A DNA stretch of 64,000 nt from the NCBI RefSeq assembly GCF_055900595.2, contig NZ_CM148325.1; one strand, written 5' to 3'. Below, one piece after another: positions 3,258 through 52,750 of the stretch. The stretch's first letter is position 1. Every line of letters starts with the position of its first letter. The translations under genes were made by a program, and so were the position numbers. Under the pieces are notes generated by a model. That model was not told the origin of the DNA, made no database searches, and worked only from the letters and a program-made list of their open reading frames with translations.

Positions 3258-3354
3258 AGTTAGAATAGAGGAGGCATCATTTATAGAATATTCAAGAACG
3301 TTAACCTGTGATCAATAAATAAAAATATCAAATGGTGTTCAAACATATTTTTCT

Positions 3355-3686
3355 ATGAAAAATCCAGCCATCTATGATGAATTTTTAGATCCATTTTAAT
3401 TAAAGTATGATTATGAACCAATATTTAGCCAAGAATGGTGGTATAGCGCGTATCCAATGACACCGGAAAACGCATCTATGAAGTCCTTGTTTATCTCTAT
3501 AAGAGGAAATCAACACTAATAAAATATAGTGATGTAACACATCGAGCAGGTTGCTCTGATGCTGGTCTTCAACTGTGGCTTAAACAGCTATCAAACTTCG
3601 GTGTTATTGAGATGAAAGAATTATCTTTCTCAACTTTCAATCTCAAAAAGCTAGAGGAAATAGACCTTAATTATTCCACTCTCTAA
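3355..3686 (+). pseudogene. Possible degraded gene: three consecutive +1-shifted open frames (MKNPAIYDEFLDPF / MIMNQYLAKNGGIARIQ / ...KRIYEVLVYLYKRKSTLIKYSDVTHRAGCSDAGLQLWLKQLSNFGVIEMKELSFSTFNLKKLEEIDLNYSTL)
   Basis: An ~80-codon stop-free frame in ~30% GC DNA lacking an ATG near its 5' end, preceded by two short ATG-initiated frames. Confidence 0.25.
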
Positions 3687-4062: not shown

Positions 4063-4282
4063 TTTTTATCTCACCTATCAAATTTAGATAAATAATATAA
4101 ATTAGATAAATAAGATAATCAATAGTTTTTACCATATGAATAATGGATGTGGATTGTTTCTTTTTCATTTCTGATATGGAGTACAAAATGGGGTCACAAT
4201 GAAGAAGCGATGAATGGAGGCGAGCTTGCATCTGCAAGCCTCTTCCCCTAATCTGGCACAAAATATAGAGATTCAACCAAAC

Positions 4283-4400
4283 GACTCGGGGTGCCCTTCT
4301 GCGTGAAGGCTGAGAAATACCCGTATCACCTGATCTGGATAATGCCAGCGTAGGGAAGTCACGGACCACCAGGTCATTGCTTCTTCACGTTATGGCAGGA
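4283..4400 (+). promoter_or_regulatory. TPP (THI-box) riboswitch in the thiM 5' leader
   Basis: Sequence ggggtgcccttctgcgtgaaggctgagaaatacccgtatcacctgatctggataatgccagcgtagggaa matches the classic thiM thiamine-pyrophosphate aptamer; directly upstream of thiM start. Confidence 0.92.
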
Positions 4401-5196: not shown

Positions 5197-5993
5197 AACG
5201 AATTAACGCTCTGACAATTGCAGGCACTGATCCCAGTGGTGGCGCAGGAATTCAGGCAGATCTCAAAACGTTCTCGGCACTTGGCGCTTATGGTTGCTCA
5301 GTGATTACTGCACTGGTGGCGCAAAATACCCGTGGCGTACAGTCGGTGTATCGCATTGAGCCTGATTTTGTCGCCGCCCAGCTCGATTCGGTGTTCAGCG
5401 ATGTGCGAATCGATACCACTAAAATCGGTATGTTGGCGGAAACTGATATTGTTGAAGCGGTGGCAGAACGGTTGCAACGTTATCAGATCCAAAACGTGGT
5501 GCTCGACACCGTTATGCTGGCAAAAAGCGGCGACCCGCTGCTTTCACCTTCGGCGGTTGCTACGCTGCGCAGTCGATTATTGCCACAGGTTTCATTAATA
5601 ACGCCAAACTTGCCCGAAGCAGCCGCCTTGCTCGACGCGCCACACGCGCGCAACGAACAGGAAATGCTGGAACAAGGGCGATCGCTGTTGGCGATGGGCT
5701 GTGGCGCAGTGCTAATGAAAGGTGGTCATCTGGATGATGAGCAAAGCCCGGACTGGCTGTTTACCCGCGAGGGTGAACAACGGTTTACCGCACCGCGCAT
5801 TATGACCCAAAACACCCACGGCACTGGTTGTACGCTCTCTGCGGCGTTGGCTGCACTGCGCCCGCGCCATACAAACTGGGCTGACACCGTACAGGAGGCA
5901 AAAAGCTGGCTTTCATCGGCATTAGCCCAGGCCGACACGCTGGAAGTTGGTCACGGTATTGGTCCGGTTCACCACTTCCACGCCTGGTGGTGA
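5193..5993 (+). CDS. thiD: Hydroxymethylpyrimidine/phosphomethylpyrimidine kinase (GTG start overlapping thiM stop)
   Basis: 266-aa [29 protein letters not shown]... Confidence 0.95.
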
Positions 5994-6057: not shown

Positions 6058-6876
6058 ATGCAGCTGAGCATCACCAGTCGAAAAAAATTCACCGCTTTAT
6101 TATGCGCTCTTGGGCTAATTTCCATCGTTGCAATTTATCCGCGTCAGACGGTGAATTTTTTCTACTCGACAGCAATTCAGATTAAAGACTACATCCACTT
6201 CTACGGTTATCGTCCGGTCAAATCTTTTGCTATTCGCATTCCTGCCAGTTACACCATTCATGGTATTGATGTTTCACGCTGGCAGGAGCGAATCGACTGG
6301 CAGCGGGTGGCAAAAATGCGCGATAACGGTATTCGCTTGCAATTTGCCTTTATCAAGGCGACGGAGGGCGAAAAGCTGGTGGACCCCTATTTTTCGCGTA
6401 ACTGGCAACTAAGCCGCGAAAATGGCCTGCTGCGCGGGGCGTATCATTAATTCTCCCCGTCGGTATCCGCTTCAGTTCAGGCGCGATTATTTCTGCAAAC
6501 GGTGGATTTCTCACAAGGCGATTTCCCTGCCGTGCTGGACGTAGAAGAACGGGGAAAATTATCGGCAAAAGAATTACGCAAGCGGGTAAGTCAGTGGCTA
6601 AAAATGGTCGAAAAACGCACGGGAAAAAAGCCGATTATTTACTCAGGAGCCGTTTTTTATCACACGAATCTGGCGGGCTATTTCAATGAATATCCGTGGT
6701 GGGTGGCTCACTACTATCAACGTCGTCCGGACAATGACGGAATGGCCTGGCGCTTCTGGCAGCATTCCGACCGTGGACAGGTAGATGGCATTAATGGTCC
6801 GGTGGATTTTAATGTGTTTAATGGCACGGTGGAGGAGTTGCAGGCATTCGTTGATGGGATTAAAGAAACGCCTTAA
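6058..6876 (+). pseudogene. yegX: yegX (GH25 lysozyme-like) interrupted by an in-frame TAA at 6448-6450
   Basis: ORFs 6049..6450 and 6502..6876 are in the same frame (distance 453 = 151 codons); combined length about 272 aa matches recalled intact YegX. Confidence 0.7.
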
Positions 6877-35864: not shown

Positions 35865-36005
35865 AGCGGGACGCTGAAACGGGAAAGCCCCTCCCGAGGA
35901 AGGGGCCTTAAATAAGGAAAGGGTCATGATGAAGTGGATCATCATCGTGGTGCTCTTAGTCGTTAGCTACCCAGCTTACTAAGACTACCAGGGCGGGGGA
36001 AACCC
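35865..36005 (-). ncRNA. sib: Sib-family antisense sRNA (antitoxin), copy 1; boundaries approximate
   Basis: Inferred from known Sib/Ibs architecture; terminator-like hairpin aagcccctcccgaggaaggggcctt at 35885-35908. Confidence 0.5.
35926..35982 (+). CDS. ibs: Ibs-family type I toxin peptide (MMKWIIIVVLLVVSYPAY)
   Basis: Matches Ibs peptide pattern; RBS aaggaaagg upstream. Confidence 0.8.
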   Translation: MMKWIIIVVLLVVSYPAY

Positions 36006-36189
36006 CGCTCAACCCTCACTCCTGAAAATATGCCTTCACGGTCAGAATGTCAATCCGCAGGCTTTGCAGTCTGCGATCCTGCCAGCAAATATTCTTTGCG
36101 AGTCGTTACGCAATAATCACAGATGAAACTATTTTATCTACGCGTTAGCGATAGACTGCATTCAGGGCAAAAGGAGGTAGGCCGACGAT

Positions 36190-36335
36190 TTCAGCGGGAC
36201 GCTGAAACGGGAAAGCCCCTCCCGAGGAAGGGGCCTTAAATAAGGAAAGGGTCATGATGAAGCTACTCATCATCGTGGTGCTCTTAGTCATTAGCTTACC
36301 GGCTTACTAAGACTACCAGGGCGGGGGAAACCCCG
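36190..36335 (-). ncRNA. sib: Sib-family antisense sRNA, copy 2; boundaries approximate
   Basis: Inferred from repeat architecture. Confidence 0.5.
36254..36310 (+). CDS. ibs: Ibs-family type I toxin peptide (MMKLLIIVVLLVISLPAY)
   Basis: Second repeat unit. Confidence 0.8.
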   Translation: MMKLLIIVVLLVISLPAY

Positions 36336-36519
36336 CTCTACCCTCACTCCTGAAAGTATGCTTTCACAATCAGATTGTCAATCCGCAGGCTTTGTAGTCT
36401 GCGATCCTGCCAGCAAATATTCTTTGCGAGACGTTACGCAATAATCACATGTGAAACTATTTTATCTGCAAGTTAGCGATAGACTGCTTGCATGGCGAAA
36501 GGAGGTAGGCCGCCGATTT

Positions 36520-36665
36520 CAGCGGGACGCTGAAACGGGAAAGCCCCTCCCGAGGAAGGGGCCTTAAATAAGGAAAGGGTCATGATGAAGCTACTCATCA
36601 TCGTGGTGCTCTTAGTTATTAGCTGGCCAGCTTACTAAGACTACCAGGGCGGGGGGAAACCCCGC
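36520..36665 (-). ncRNA. sib: Sib-family antisense sRNA, copy 3; boundaries approximate
   Basis: Inferred from repeat architecture. Confidence 0.5.
36582..36638 (+). CDS. ibs: Ibs-family type I toxin peptide (MMKLLIIVVLLVISWPAY)
   Basis: Third repeat unit. Confidence 0.8.
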   Translation: MMKLLIIVVLLVISWPAY

Positions 36666-36856
36666 TCTACCCTCACTCCTGAAGTTATGTTACTCCACCC
36701 TTATTGTCAATCTGTAAGTCCACGTTCTTGCGGGGCGAATAGCAAAACCCTCTGCGCTTATGGGCCGAATTCTGAAAGTTGCTTTGCCTGCTCTTATTTC
36801 ATTGTTGCAGTCGGTATGATACCGGACCTCAATAATTCTCTAAGAAAGGATTTCTT

Positions 36857-43299: not shown

Positions 43300-43395
43300 G
43301 TCGCCGGATGCGGTGCGAGCGCCTTATCCGGCCTGGGGAATGAGCGATTTGTAGGCATGATAAGACGCGTTAGCGTCGCATCAGGCAATGGGCAA
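43300..43395. repeat. REP/BIME units
   Basis: gccggatgcggtgcgagcgccttatccggcc and gataagacgcgttagcgtcgcatcaggc. Confidence 0.8.
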
Positions 43396-48374: not shown

Positions 48375-50228
48375 ATGAGACGATTTCTGACGACGCTGAT
48401 GATACTCCTGGTCGTGCTGGTGGCCGGGTTATCTGCGTTAGTGTTGCTGGTGAATCCGAATGATTTCCGCGACTATATGGTCAAGCAAGTTGCTGCACGT
48501 AGCGGTTATCAATTGCAGCTCGACGGGCCACTGCGTTGGCACGTCTGGCCGCAACTTAGTATCCTCTCCGGGCGAATGTCTCTCACTGCCCAGGGCGCGA
48601 GCCAGCCACTGGTTCGCGCAGACAACATGCGTCTGGACGTGGCGCTTTTACCACTGCTGAGTCATCAACTGAGCGTTAAGCAGGTGATGCTAAAAGGGGC
48701 AGTGATCCAACTGACGCCGCAGACGGAAGCGGTACGCAGCGAAGATGCCCCGGTTGCACCGCGCGACAATACCTTGCCGGATCTGTCAGACGATCGCGGA
48801 TGGTCGTTTGATATATCCAGTCTTAAGGTGGCGGACAGCGTGCTGGTGTTCCAGCATGAAGATGACGAGCAGGTGACAATCCGTAATATCCGCCTGCAAA
48901 TGGAACAAGATCCCCAACATCGTGGTTCATTTGAGTTCTCCGGGCGGGTTAATCGCGATCAGCGCGATCTCACGATATCCCTTAACGGTACGGTAGATGC
49001 TTCTGATTATCCGCATGATTTAACGGCGGCTATTGAACAAATTAACTGGCAGTTGCAGGGTGCCGATTTACCAAAACAAGGTATTCAGGGGCAGGGGAGT
49101 TTCCAGGCCCAGTGGCAGGAGTCACATAAACGCCTTTCATTTAACCAAATTAGTTTGACCGCCAATGACAGTACGCTGAGCGGGCAAGCACAGGTCACGC
49201 TGACAGAGAAACCGGAATGGCAGCTGAGACTGCAATTCCCGCAACTGAATCTTGACAACCTCATCCCGCTTAAAGAAACAGCGAACGGTGAAAACGGTGC
49301 CGCGCAGCAGGGGCAGAGCCAATCCACGTTGCCGCGCCCGGTCATTTCTTCGCGTATTGATGAACCGGCCTATCAGGGATTGCAAGGCTTTACGGCTGAT
49401 ATTTTGTTGCAGGCCAGTAACGTGCGCTGGCGCGGAATGAATTTTACAGACGTTGCCACGCAAATGACCAACAAGTCGGGTTTGCTGGAAATTACTCAAC
49501 TGCAGGGCAAGCTTAACGGTGGACAGGTTTCACTGCCGGGCACGCTGGATGCAACATCAACAAATCCGCGGATAAACTTCCAGCCACGGCTGGAAAACGT
49601 TGAGATTGGCACCATTCTGAAGGCGTTTAACTATCCGATTTCGTTGACCGGAAAGATGTCACTGGCTGGTGATTTCTCCGGTGCTGACATAGATGCCGAC
49701 GCATTCCGCCACAACTGGCAAGGACAGGCGCATGTCGAAATGACGGACACACGTATGGAAGGGATGAACTTCCAGCAGATGATTCAGCAAGCGGTAGAGC
49801 GTAATGGTGGTGATGTGAAGGCCGCTGAAAACTTCGATAACGTGACGCGTCTTGACCGCTTTACCACCGATTTGACGTTGAAGGATGGCGTTGTGACGTT
49901 AAACGACATGCAAGGTCAATCGCCTGTGCTGGCGCTGACAGGGGAAGGCATGTTGAATTTGGCAGATCAAACCTGCGACACCCAGTTTGATATTCGGGTC
50001 GTGGGTGGCTGGAACGGGGAAAGCAAACTGATTGATTTCCTCAAAGAAACGCCAGTACCGCTGCGGGTTTATGGCAACTGGCAGCAACTTAATTACAGTC
50101 TGCAAGTGGACCAGCTGCTACGCAAACATCTACAGGACGAAGCCAAACGTCGCCTGAATGACTGGGCCGAGCGGAATAAAGATTCCCGCAATGGCAAAGA
50201 TGTGAAGAAGTTGCTGGAGAAGATGTAA
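48375..50228 (+). CDS. asmA: AsmA outer-membrane assembly protein
   Basis: 617-aa ORF with N-terminal TM anchor. Confidence 0.92.
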   Translation: MRRFLTTLMILLVVLVAGLSALVLLVNPNDFRDYMVKQVAARSGYQLQLDGPLRWHVWPQLSILSGRMSLTAQGASQPLVRADNMRLDVALLPLLSHQLSVKQVMLKGAVIQLTPQTEAVRSEDAPVAPRDNTLPDLSDDRGWSFDISSLKVADSVLVFQHEDDEQVTIRNIRLQMEQDPQHRGSFEFSGRVNRDQRDLTISLNGTVDASDYPHDLTAAIEQINWQLQGADLPKQGIQGQGSFQAQWQESHKRLSFNQISLTANDSTLSGQAQVTLTEKPEWQLRLQFPQLNLDNLIPLKETANGENGAAQQGQSQSTLPRPVISSRIDEPAYQGLQGFTADILLQASNVRWRGMNFTDVATQMTNKSGLLEITQLQGKLNGGQVSLPGTLDATSTNPRINFQPRLENVEIGTILKAFNYPISLTGKMSLAGDFSGADIDADAFRHNWQGQAHVEMTDTRMEGMNFQQMIQQAVERNGGDVKAAENFDNVTRLDRFTTDLTLKDGVVTLNDMQGQSPVLALTGEGMLNLADQTCDTQFDIRVVGGWNGESKLIDFLKETPVPLRVYGNWQQLNYSLQVDQLLRKHLQDEAKRRLNDWAERNKDSRNGKDVKKLLEKM

Positions 50229-50244
50229 GTCATCCAGATGATAT

Positions 50245-50680
50245 ATGCTGTAGGCCTGATAAGACGCGTAAGCGTCGCATCAGGCAATCACGTAGATTAC
50301 TTTCAGCAAAGATGAATCATCTGTATAAGTAAGATACTTCAGCGAGGGTGTTGGTCCGGCTGTAAATCGCCGAATCGTTTCCTGTAGGCCGGGGCAGCCC
50401 ACATGGATGTGGGCTGAGGGCGCGTTTTACAGGGATGTTACCTCGCGCCCGTACCCGATAGCCGAAAGGAATAAGATGAGGGGACCGCGCTAGCGGCGAT
50501 TTACCGCCGGGAGCCCGGGTTGCCAGGGTGGTGGCGATTGAGCCACCCTGGCACGTTCACCGGCTTGAGCGTTCCAAAGTAGCGAGGAACATAAAGTGAA
50601 CGGAACAGCCTCTAATGTCACATACTCTCCCGGTTGAATGAAACGCCTGATGCGACGCTTACGCGTCTTATCAGGCCTAC
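50245..50680. repeat. Two REP units in perfect inverted orientation flanking about 350 bp of hairpin-rich non-coding sequence
   Basis: aggcctgataagacgcgtaagcgtcgcatcaggc at 50246-50279 and its exact reverse complement at 50641-50676. Confidence 0.8.
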
Positions 50681-50686
50681 ATACCA

Positions 50687-52270
50687 TCACACCTCGTACT
50701 CCATCTCGCCATCCTTATGCAGCGGAATAATCTGCACCTTCTGCACGCGATGGCTTTCCACCTGCAACGTTTTAAGCAAATAATCCCCCACCTGAACTTC
50801 TTCGCCAGGTTTTGGAATACGCTGTAAATATTCCATCAACAGCCCGGCAATGGTGTGATATTCACGTTTTTCATCCAGCGGCAGCGGCACATATTGCACC
50901 AGATCTTCCAGCGGCATATGACCATTCGCCGTCCAGGAACCGTCGGCATTCTTCTGAATATCATGGCGGGCGTCGATCTCTTCCACTTCGTTCGGTAAGT
51001 TACCGGCAATGGTTTCAGTGACGTCACTTAATGTCACAATCCCTTCCACCGAGCCAAACTCATCCACCACAAAAGCAAAGTGTGTGCGGGCATTACGGAA
51101 CTGCTCCAGGGCAGGTAACAACGGTAAAGTTTCCGGGAACACCAGCGGTTGGCGAATCAACACCCGCAGGTTGAGCGGTTCGCCGCGCAGTGACTGTTGT
51201 AACAGGTCGATAACGTGAACGACACCGAGCAAATCTTCTGCATCATCGCCGTCGGTAACGACCAGACGCGTGTGCTGATTTCGCTCCAGCAGCTGGCGGA
51301 TCTCCTCTTCTGGCGCGTTGAGATCGATATGCTCAATATCGTGGCGCGACGTCATGATGCTGCTGACAGTACGCTGGTTAAGATTAAGTACCCGCTCAAT
51401 CATCCGCCGTTCCTGCGGATTAAAGATCTGCTGGTTACCATGATCCACCAGCATGGACGCGGTTTCGGCATCCAGTTCCGCATCTTCTTTTTGCCCGCTA
51501 AGCAGGCGCATTACCGCTTCGGTAGTCCGCTGGCGCAGTGTCTGGTTAGCGGAAAGAAAACGTCGCCGGTTAAAGATAGCCAACTGATTGAGCGCCTCGA
51601 TCATCACCGAGAAACCAATGGCAGCATACAGATAGCCTTTCGGAATGACGAAGCCGAAACCTTCCGCCACCAGGCTAAAGCCAATCATCAACAGGAAACT
51701 TAGGCAGAGTATGACGATGGTCGGGTGACTGTTAACAAATTGCGTTAACGGCTTGCTTGCCATCAGCATCAGGCTGATCGCGATAACAACGGCGGCCATC
51801 ATGACCAGTAAATGGTCGACCATCCCGACGGCAGTAATCACCGAGTCAAGTGAGAAGATGGCGTCCAGTACCACAATTTGCGTCACCACGCCCCAGAACT
51901 TCGCACCTTTGCGTTGCGTGGGGTTATTGCTGTCTTTCCCCTCCAGCCGTTCGTTCAACTCCATCGTGGCTTTGAACAGCAGGAAGAAACCACCAAACAG
52001 CATGATTAAGTCGCGGGCGCTAAAGGTAAACGAGCGGAAGCTGAACAGTGGTTGAGTCAGGGTGACCAGCCAGGAGATTGACGCCAGCAGTAACAGGCGC
52101 ATTAACATTGCCAGCAGCAGCCCGGTAACCCGTGCGCGGTCGCGCTGCTTCGGCGGTAGTTTTTCGGCGAGGATGGCAATAAAGACCAGGTTATCAATGC
52201 CGAGGACCAGTTCGATCACAATCAGCGTGATTAACCCGGCCCAGATAGACGGATCGGCAATCCATTCCAT
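50687..52270 (-). CDS. yegH: TerC/CBS/CorC-domain membrane protein
   Basis: Start at internal ATG ([13 protein letters not shown]...), 527 aa. Confidence 0.88.
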
Positions 52271-52738
52271 AGTAAGTACAAAACCTATTCGTTGTATGAC
52301 AAATGTCACAATTCGATCATGGATAAATCGGGGCAAAAATGCAATGTTGCAGCACTATTTATCTCATATTATTTGAGGTTTATAACCTCACATTATCCCT
52401 GAATTAAAAGTGGTAATAATAAAACATTATTTAAGAAATATCGCATGTGGAGACACTATATTAAATATTGTCAACCTAAAGAAACTCCTAAAAACCATAT
52501 TGAATGACACTTAATATAATTCTTAAAAATAGCCAATTGCCGAATTGTTACCTTGCCTGCTATTCCGTTAGCTGTAACACTTCCTCCTGCATTATGGGAA
52601 GCCAATATTCAATTACCATAATGCCACCTTATATCTGGAAAATTAATTCACGGAATAACGCTTTTTCATAATCAACTGCATGATGAAAGAGTTAGAAAAT
52701 CTAAACTAAATCAGTGTATTGGTAGCTAAAAAGCCAGG

Positions 52739-52750
52739 GGCGGTAGCGTG
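52739..52750 (+). promoter_or_regulatory. ops element (GGCGGTAGCGTG) in JUMPStart, RfaH recruitment site in the wza leader
   Basis: Exact ops consensus GGCGGTAGnnTG about 180 nt upstream of wza. Confidence 0.85.

Follow-up and report, generated by a model that had tools for sequence, protein, structure and literature searches.

The asmA-yegH spacer

We examined the spacer between the convergent genes asmA and yegH in a 64,000-nucleotide stretch of Escherichia coli DNA (NCBI RefSeq assembly GCF_055900595.2, contig NZ_CM148325.1; this whole stretch is called the window here, with position 1 at its first letter), which its list of open reading frames (ORFs) and the RefSeq annotation of the near-identical CV839-06 region identify as the udk-dcd-asmA/yegH-wza region. 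The spacer holds two repetitive extragenic palindromic (REP) units in inverted orientation, and the interior that they enclose is, judged by homology, an uncatalogued and divergent copy of a dispersed repeat family known as TRIP1 or RRS, with a fold that is kept by compensatory mutations. In CV839-06 the interior is 100% identical and the whole spacer 99.6% identical to the window.

An earlier sequence-only reading of this stretch had described perfect inverted REPs of 34 bp, some 360 bp apart, around an interior that lacked an ORF and exceeded the linkers typical of bacterial interspersed mosaic elements (BIMEs). Each of these points held, with small adjustments: the repeat search gave arms of 37 nt each, 100% complementary and separated by 359 nt, and RefSeq annotates no coding sequence (CDS) on the CV839-06 region, the only overlaps being two mechanical minus-strand ORFs of 40 amino acids (50280-50402) and 66 amino acids (50490-50690). 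BIME linkers are expected to be short, and the interior is unrelated to them, representing instead a different dispersed family with compensated secondary structure.

The two arms are typical REPs. Each by itself is an imperfect palindrome of the REP type, and the REP-derived Rfam family naRNA4 matched them at 38.5 and 34.8 bits, under its gathering score of 59.5. The exact REP 32-mer occurs in the window at these two sites only, up to three mismatches add two REPs elsewhere, and shuffled sequences gave 0. Further units of the same class lie at 12228-12298 (+), which barely reaches the naRNA4 gathering score (60.0 versus 59.5), at 12266-12297 and at 43355-43386. In every E. coli haplotype of the window type that we examined (the window and loci L043, L044 and L001) the arms are exact complements, and within a lineage both carry the same 1-nt loop indel (GTAAG or GTAAAG), indicating concerted evolution and pointing to gene conversion between the arms. 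In an RNA that spans both REPs, the two are predicted to form a 37-bp duplex. The empty allele of the site carries a single REP, and the two REPs of the window are ordinary host REPs rather than terminal repeats belonging to the element; the right REP was also rejected as a target duplication, being an inverted and not a direct copy.

Table 1. Positions of the flanking genes, the REP units and the parts of the repeat in the window
Feature	Positions	Strand	Basis or remark
asmA CDS	48375-50228	+	ORF list; RefSeq annotation of CV839-06 region; coding strand is the window + strand
Left REP unit, TGTAGGCCTGATAAGACGCGTAAGCGTCGCATCAGGC	50249-50285		Repeat search; homologous to single REP of empty allele; sub-threshold naRNA4/REP match
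5' leader of the repeat	50286-50355	+	Alignments; homologous, only ~70% identical between haplotypes
Weak -35/-10-like pair in leader	TTTCAG 50301-50306, TATAAG 50324-50329	+	Fails promoter scan
5' domain of TRIP1/RRS-family module	50356-50512	+	Covariance model R1, 173.4 bits; covariation; Rfam TwoAYGGAY, 29.1 bits
Closing stem P1 of 5' domain	50356-50372 paired with 50494-50510	+	
Hairpin 1, CAGCCCACA-UGGA-UGUGGGCUG	50395-50416	+	10-nt perfect arms; GGA in loop at 50405-50407
Hairpin 2, GGGCGCG...UUACA-GGGA-UGUUA...CGCGCCC	50418-50450	+	GGA at 50433-50435
Small hairpin, CCGC-GCUA-GCGG	50485-50496	+	Covariation in 3/4 pairs
Hairpin 3	50521-50553	+	11-bp perfect arms; sits where TRIP1a/c (RRS) have the G-quadruplex motif
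3' stem CGTTCAC/GTGAACG around inner hairpin GTTCC...GGAAC	50554-50602	+	Compensatory GUUCAC/GUGAAC versus GCUCCU/AGGAGC
3' tail	50603-50644	+	Alignments; diverging between haplotypes; no recognisable IS4-type terminal repeat
Right REP unit	50645-50681		Repeat search; exact reverse complement of left REP
yegH CDS (TerC family), convergent with asmA	50687-52270	-	ORF list; RefSeq coordinates of locus L001 mapped to window

A divergent member of the TRIP1/RRS family

TRIP1 repeats (Rudd 1999; Li et al. 2024, PMC10888264) comprise types a-e at aqpZ-ybjE, putP-ycdN, yohI-yohG, alx-sstT and copA-ybaP; they measure 146-273 bp, are 84-94% identical to TRIP1a, and are predicted to adopt a 'double-Y' RNA fold (PMC10888264). 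RRS, for Replication Risk Sequence, is the name that Pham, Cox, Goodman and colleagues (Pham et al. 2023, 2024; PMC10287960, PMC10592627) gave to the lysO and dusC copies, RRS-lysO being TRIP1a and RRS-dusC being TRIP1c. These were described as 222-bp GC-rich repeats ~650 kb to either side of dif (PMC10287960, PMC10592627), with a sense strand that is the lagging-strand template and carries the G-quadruplex (G4) motif GGGGGTGCAGGGGGCGGCGG (PMC10592627), and their folding on that template leads to post-replication gaps with RecA and SSB loading (PMC10287960, PMC10592627). At least one RRS copy is conditionally essential, and publications from 2023 to 2026 describe the RRS as non-mobile, position-conserved and conditionally essential; according to the RRS paper, the repeat fits no known category, transposons included. 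A 2026 single-molecule preprint reported that the G4 strand as lagging template produces a gap at essentially every encounter, and that the G4-less complementary strand blocks in ~66% of encounters.

The window copy shares with TRIP1 a homologous, GC-rich module of the same length, ~265 nt (266 bp in the window, 50346-50611), the same predicted fold, and a fixed intergenic site. It differs in being only 74.8% identical to TRIP1a over 258 aligned positions in a global alignment (85.7% over a 189-nt core), below the range of the published types, and in its location, since neither asmA-yegH nor proX-ygaY is among the five published loci (PMC10888264), the former being absent from that paper altogether. 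It falls into a distinct subfamily together with the copies at proX and in Trabulsiella and Citrobacter freundii.

A covariance model of the 5' domain (R1), built on 26 copies, found exactly one match in the window, that of Table 1; in K-12, its matches coincide with TRIP1a (lysO) and TRIP1c (dusC), at 184 bits, on opposite strands as published. The sense strand of the window copy is the asmA coding strand, which corresponds to the K-12 minus strand at 2.14 Mb, the strand of RRS-dusC. What the window copy lacks is the G4: the motif has 0 matches in the window at up to three mismatches. The equivalent stretch reads CGGGTTGCCAGGGTGGTGG and lies inside hairpin 3, the arms of which covary across subfamilies (CCAGGGUGG/CCACCCUGG, GGGGGCGG/CCGCCCCC and UAAGGGCG/CGCCCUUA).

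A fold maintained by compensatory changes

The module consists of a 5' three-way junction with two GGA-loop hairpins, followed by a 3' hairpin domain made up of an 11-bp hairpin and a second stem. In the 5' domain, a long closing stem (P1) and inner stems surround the two adjacent GGA-loop hairpins and one small hairpin, a layout that resembles the Rfam motif TwoAYGGAY. Both hairpins singled out by the sequence-only reading are present: gcccacatggatgtgggc lies within hairpin 1, and the other is hairpin 3, the perfect arms of which are 11 nt long and not 9 as had been stated.

The fold is conserved, and it is kept by compensatory mutations. RNAalifold on a 22-copy alignment gave 66 pairs, 98.7% paired, with double (compensatory) changes at 21 of them, compared to 2-5 for slid alignments; the observed values were reached in 0/500 shuffles. 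After Klebsiella and Citrobacter copies were added, the 5' domain comprised 48 pairs, 21 of them compensatory, and now included the small hairpin. Stem changes in hairpin 1 were compensatory in the proX, Klebsiella and Citrobacter copies. Together with the covariance-model score, these pairs show that the window copy shares the predicted 'double-Y' fold of TRIP1/RRS. Upon tallying wobble pairs we counted ~44 G-U cells versus ~7 A-C cells on the + strand, indicating that the + strand is the one that folds. The interior as RNA had a folding energy of -137.9 kcal/mol (z of -4.3 versus shuffles), and as single-stranded DNA -73.2 kcal/mol (z of -7.2), comparable to the -83.6 of RRS-lysO.

Some relatives carry an optional module of ~75 nt just upstream of the small hairpin; it is built of four small hairpins, among them two that present GGA in the loop. 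It occupies the same insertion point in E. whittamii, Pseudescherichia vulneris and Kluyvera cryocrescens (L014 8611-8690; L009, minus strand, ~3310-3394; left halves of L023 and L024), and its stems covary through compensatory changes.

Copies elsewhere and alleles of the spacer

The search for further copies that the sequence-only reading had proposed revealed the dispersed family. The interior matched 5418 of 5426 complete E. coli genomes, at a median of 3 places per genome, and apart from asmA-yegH these places are aqpZ-lysO (TRIP1a), dusC-mdtQ (TRIP1c), sstT-alx (TRIP1d) and proX-ygaY. Scanning one genome per species for the pattern turned up copies in several Escherichia species, Pseudescherichia, Pseudocitrobacter, Trabulsiella and Kluyvera, with five in K. 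intermedia, and BLAST added Klebsiella (12 places in one chromosome) and Citrobacter. The phage collection gave no match. Apparent plasmid matches were rejected as chromosomal fragments mislabelled as plasmids, and a match in L025 (Akkermansiaceae) as a chance pattern, with no alignment to the family and no model match. Copies differ from one another by 1-nt indels, in keeping with the lack of an ORF. At asmA-yegH, the core of two haplotypes is 96-98% identical with leaders at only ~70%, and at aqpZ the identity between Escherichia species is 96-100% in the 5' domain, compared to 89-93% in the flanking genes.

At asmA-yegH itself, a high-identity copy is found in ~28% of genomes (1514/5418), which indicates that the element is dispensable. 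The spacer occurs as six alleles. The window type, REP-element-REP, was found in 41-53 genomes (CV839-06, UMNF18 and M160133 being such strains), and its arrangement is also present in E. whittamii and two cryptic-clade genomes. The second allele, which is the commoner one, has the same core in the opposite orientation; its inner flanks are not those of the window type, and its second REP is degenerate. K-12 has a 5'-truncated allele, in which a deletion between CCCAAT and CCCGAT has removed the initial ~150 nt of the repeat, and Nissle 1917 has an empty site with a single REP. Some strains carry a relE/parE toxin-antitoxin cassette in the spacer, and a sixth allele has an IS1 insertion in the leader. 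The locus is thus highly polymorphic. The single REP of the empty allele makes insertion at a REP site, as the sequence-only reading had supposed, a good guess. A simple REP-REP inversion linking the two orientations was rejected, as the inner flanks and the yegH-side REP differ.

Two other loci are similarly variable. At proX-ygaY, EC556 carries the repeat downstream of proX (L003 2969-3420), and K-12 has a two-REP BIME there and no repeat (L042 2126-2316); the element and REPs/BIME are thus alternative occupants of this spacer. The dusC-mdtQ copy (TRIP1c/RRS-dusC) is co-directional with dusC in K-12 (L046 717-873, -) and is inverted relative to dusC, with other inner flanks, in E. whittamii and E. 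coli E69 (L015 8133-8289 +; L026), where the RRS sense strand would consequently be on the other template strand.

Three side observations concern these copies. In K-12, the interval from TRIP1c/RRS-dusC to mdtQ contains yohP, a gene for a small membrane protein, ~150 bp from the module end (L046 483-566). Klebsiella pneumoniae has, ~170 bp downstream of a full copy, a lone second leader copy (…TTTAATTTATTTACCATGCTGGCTGAAACTACCGG) without the structured module (L036 3330-3395). Finally, a 2.8-kb contig of a metagenome-assembled genome labelled 'Proteobacteria bacterium' (L007 1-760) joins a yegH 3' fragment and the asmA-yegH repeat to the dusC 3' end and its repeat; it is probably Escherichia DNA, with a repeat-mediated rearrangement or a misassembly.

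Probable relation to IS4-type miniature transposons

In Kluyvera and Pseudocitrobacter, the module is part of units of 591-633 bp that are imperfect palindromes: the module makes up the right half, and the left half is an inverted, diverged second copy, which the model matches on the opposite strand with 57-63 bits. These palindromic units are multi-copy and have no annotated or obvious coding sequence. Their ends, TAATGCTGGTCAGTTAAG, match the IS4 end TAATGCCAGTCAGTTAAG at 16/18 positions (the K-12 IS4 ends are TAATGCCAGTCAGTTAAG and TAATGCCGATCAGTTAAG, with a 12-bp target duplication), and in the 633-bp Pseudocitrobacter unit (L028 5273-5905) the two 18-bp ends are perfect inverted repeats of each other, both agreeing with IS4 at 16/18. 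The units are flanked by target duplications of 13 bp (perfect, L028), 11 bp with 1 mismatch and 11 bp with 2 mismatches (L019 and L008). Two of the three units sit inside intrinsic-terminator hairpins (L028 5260-5272 / 5906-5918; L019 6184-6194 / 6786-6796); beyond the unit, the terminator that remains after target duplication is weakened, so that such a unit would join the 3' untranslated region (UTR) of the upstream gene. Beyond the ends, the module showed no similarity to the IS4 interior. C. freundii has a head-to-head pair of copies without recognisable ends.

The transposon origin is thus well supported in the relatives, and these sequences suggest that the family was spread by an IS4-type miniature transposon. 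Compared to IS4-derived miniature inverted-repeat transposable elements (MITEs), the Kluyvera and Pseudocitrobacter units have the same IS4-like 18-bp ends, 11-13-bp duplications, multiple copies and absence of a CDS. They differ from them in module sequence, which is unrelated to IS4, and in an interior with covarying local structure, more than end-to-end pairing, which is unusual for a MITE. The window copy, for its part, belongs to a small, non-coding, multi-copy element polymorphic for presence and absence. The sequence-only reading's proposal of a miniature inverted-repeat element is thus partly supported: the intact relatives in other genera bear the hallmarks of MITEs, whereas the window copy has kept no transposon ends and its REPs are not the element's own.

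The Escherichia copies, which look like decayed halves, would be immobile relics at particular intergenic sites, and the two orientations at asmA-yegH and at dusC-mdtQ may reflect the survival of one or the other half of a single palindromic insertion. In the papers that we read we found no link of the repeat to an IS4-type transposon, and literature searches on RSA/box C, yegH/asmA and IS4 MITEs gave nothing relevant.

RNA features of the module

The layout of the 5' domain led to a comparison with TwoAYGGAY (RF01731; Weinberg 2010), an orphan Rfam motif proposed in the literature as a CsrA binder. The window copy matched it partially, at the score in Table 1 and below the gathering score of 43; all four copies scanned matched at 28-31.5 bits, the three paralogues over the full length (28.2-31.5). 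Both are multi-copy and intergenic (TwoAYGGAY is multi-copy in Psychromonas), and both have a long closing stem, P1, around two neighbouring hairpins whose loops read A-N-GGA-Y; the loop ACAUGGAUGU is the same as in the Psychromonas seed sequences. They differ in that the window family scores below threshold, has AUGGAU and AGGGAU as loops, the second with R and not Y in place of AYGGAY, and has an extra 3' domain. At gathering thresholds, Rfam found nothing in the element region, and CsrB and CsrC gave no match even at E up to 10. The Rfam and covariance searches suggested by the sequence-only reading thus yielded a resemblance to TwoAYGGAY and a hit to the family's own model, and no Rfam hit at threshold in this region.

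The GGA triplets are kept in both loops in every copy examined, in all genera, while the stems covary. The two triplets start 28 nt apart, a spacing that suits bridging by a CsrA dimer. The loop sequences, ACA-UGGA-UGU and UUACA-GGGA-UGUUA, are the only ACANGGATGT sites in the window. In the CsrA consensus obtained by systematic evolution of ligands by exponential enrichment (SELEX), RUACARGGAUGU, ACA and GGA are invariant, and GGA is presented in a hairpin loop (PMC4347634); hairpin 2 matches this consensus at 11/12 positions and the other hairpin at 9/12, with ACA and GGA intact in both.

In K-12, published tables show asmA transcripts crossing the spacer and ending at a Rho-dependent region just inside the yegH 3' end, and by this read-through the sense module of the window strain would lie in the asmA 3' UTR. 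Scans of the window copy, K-12 TRIP1a, the C. freundii pair and two intact MITEs detected neither a credible sigma-70-like promoter nor a credible intrinsic terminator. The K-12 CsrA cross-linking and immunoprecipitation (CLIP) gene table has no peak for asmA, ybjE or ygaY, and neither aqpZ nor lysO appears in the K-12 tables of 3' ends and Rho sites, both being weak negatives. Of the 'structured ncRNA' that the sequence-only reading had considered, the structured element remains, and an independent ncRNA gene finds no promoter, terminator or transcript evidence.

Weighing the possible roles

Overall, we lean, at slightly better than even confidence, towards the view that the interior is a divergent TRIP1/RRS copy which came to lie between inverted host REPs, was spread by an IS4-type element, and has a sense strand that folds on the lagging-strand template and gives rise to gaps. 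Among the roles considered, this DNA-level mechanism would be the one best supported by homology for a copy without G4. In the lysO and dusC relatives, the sense strand has been shown to fold as lagging-strand template, block Okazaki-fragment synthesis, and leave a gap that loads SSB and RecA. The window copy belongs to the same family, has a comparable single-stranded folding energy, and, as its sense strand is the asmA coding strand, it would be on the lagging-strand template by the K-12 map, which is the active RRS orientation. Local gaps and RecA loading would also explain the rearranged spacer and the concerted REP arms.

Several points weigh against this view. The copy is missing from ~72% of E. 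coli genomes, and only the 41-53 genomes of the first allele have the orientation seen in the window. The assignment to the lagging strand assumes that the strain is collinear with K-12 here. The site, which we take to be ~550 kb from dif by the K-12 map, is not at the 650 kb of the RRS, and it is occupied in a minority of strains only. The window copy has no G4, which marks the strong-blocker strand in published work; any block would thus rest on hairpins alone and should be weaker. A simple DNA roadblock gives no reason for GGA to be kept so strictly in the hairpin loops from one genus to the next. Regarding the transposon, a terminal-repeat scan detected no IS4-type ends at up to four mismatches in the window copy and no target duplication, the best 18-nt window in the 3' tail matching an IS4-type end at ~10/18 by eye; the case for its transposon ancestry comes from homology to the intact units of other genera, and a MITE may instead have captured a pre-existing module.

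Less probable, yet a serious contender, is that the window copy is a functionless fossil, the decayed half of a miniature transposon in a REP-containing spacer that inherited its fold and loops and is inactive here. The empty site in most E. coli genomes, the truncation in K-12, the relE/parE cassette and IS1 hit in other strains, and the loss of the transposon ends all fit a fossil. The pattern of conservation does not: the core is far more similar between haplotypes than the leaders, the aqpZ 5' domain is more conserved than the neighbouring genes, and compensatory changes have accumulated between paralogues. Moreover, IS4-type DDE transposases need terminal repeats only, so transposition does not explain the internal fold.

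We consider it unlikely, somewhat more so than a fossil, that the module acts as RNA. In such a scenario, asmA read-through would produce a transcript clamped 3' and 5' by the REP hairpins, and its TwoAYGGAY-class junction would bind a CsrA dimer, serving as a sponge or a responsive 3' UTR. The asmA transcripts of K-12 and the match of all four scanned copies to a proposed CsrA-binding family are consistent with this, as are two loops that keep the invariant ACA and GGA of the SELEX consensus and contain the sole ACANGGATGT sites in the window. The same holds for the GGA kept in every copy among covarying stems, with two more GGA hairpins supplied by the optional module in three genera, and for the high identity of the 5' domain between Escherichia species relative to the flanking genes. 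The excess of G-U cells on the + strand agrees with a folded RNA, but a folded DNA strand would account for G-T wobble and strand asymmetry just as well. Against an RNA role stand the lack of a promoter or terminator in any copy scanned, the silence of the CLIP and 3'-end tables, and the sub-threshold Rfam scores. In addition, in the copies first examined, the sense strand is antisense to both neighbours at three of the five Escherichia loci, although the K-12-type dusC-mdtQ copy runs with dusC. As to known CsrA-binding RNAs, the GGA in hairpin loops fitting the consensus recalls CsrB/CsrC/RsmZ, which have ~20 sites, compared to 2 here (up to 4 with the optional module).

A combination of spread by a transposon and a role as RNA, which we regard as doubtful and put forward as a model, is that TRIP1/RRS are the cargo of an IS4-mobilised palindromic miniature transposon and at the same time TwoAYGGAY-class RNAs with two to four consensus CsrA hairpins. 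If so, cross-genus conservation would reflect horizontal spread plus an RNA-protein interaction, possibly beside DNA gap activity, and not merely an ancient, position-bound topological role; the window copy, expressed from the asmA 3' UTR between pairing REPs, could be trimmed to a stable CsrA-binding RNA.

Very improbable, and largely refuted, is a REP-bounded unit, either a giant REPIN-like element moved by a REP-associated transposase or a segment flipping by REP-REP recombination: the 37-nt perfect inverted arms, their predicted pairing in a spanning transcript, and the presence of both orientations at asmA-yegH in different strains speak for it, but REP-element-REP (433 bp) was found only at asmA-yegH in the genomes of the first allele, the opposite allele does not result from a mere flip (it has other inner flanks, and a different, degenerate and direct REP on the yegH side), elsewhere the copies have no REPs as boundaries, proX carries the element in one allele and a BIME in another, and dusC-mdtQ has both orientations without such REPs.

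Other features of the window

Rfam also identified three tandem SIB RNA (type I antitoxin) copies on the minus strand (35911-36053, 36239-36381 and 36567-36710; 136-140 bits, well over threshold), the CyaR/RyeE small RNA (20895-20980, -), a thiamine pyrophosphate (TPP) riboswitch (4277-4373, +), and a JUMPstart element upstream of wza (52712-52750, +).

Significance

The practical consequence for this strain is small: the spacer between asmA and yegH is recombination-prone and dispensable. For the family, the TRIP1/RRS repeats turn out to be more numerous and more varied than catalogued. A subfamily without G4 keeps its fold by compensatory change, which points to the hairpin architecture, and not the G4, as the family-wide constraint. 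The IS4-type ends and the target duplications in relatives offer a simple explanation for cross-genus identity and for extra copies. The invariant GGA loops, which match the CsrA consensus, suggest a protein partner; with the sub-threshold likeness to TwoAYGGAY they give a testable hypothesis for that motif, and they may indicate a second, RNA-level role of the RRS.

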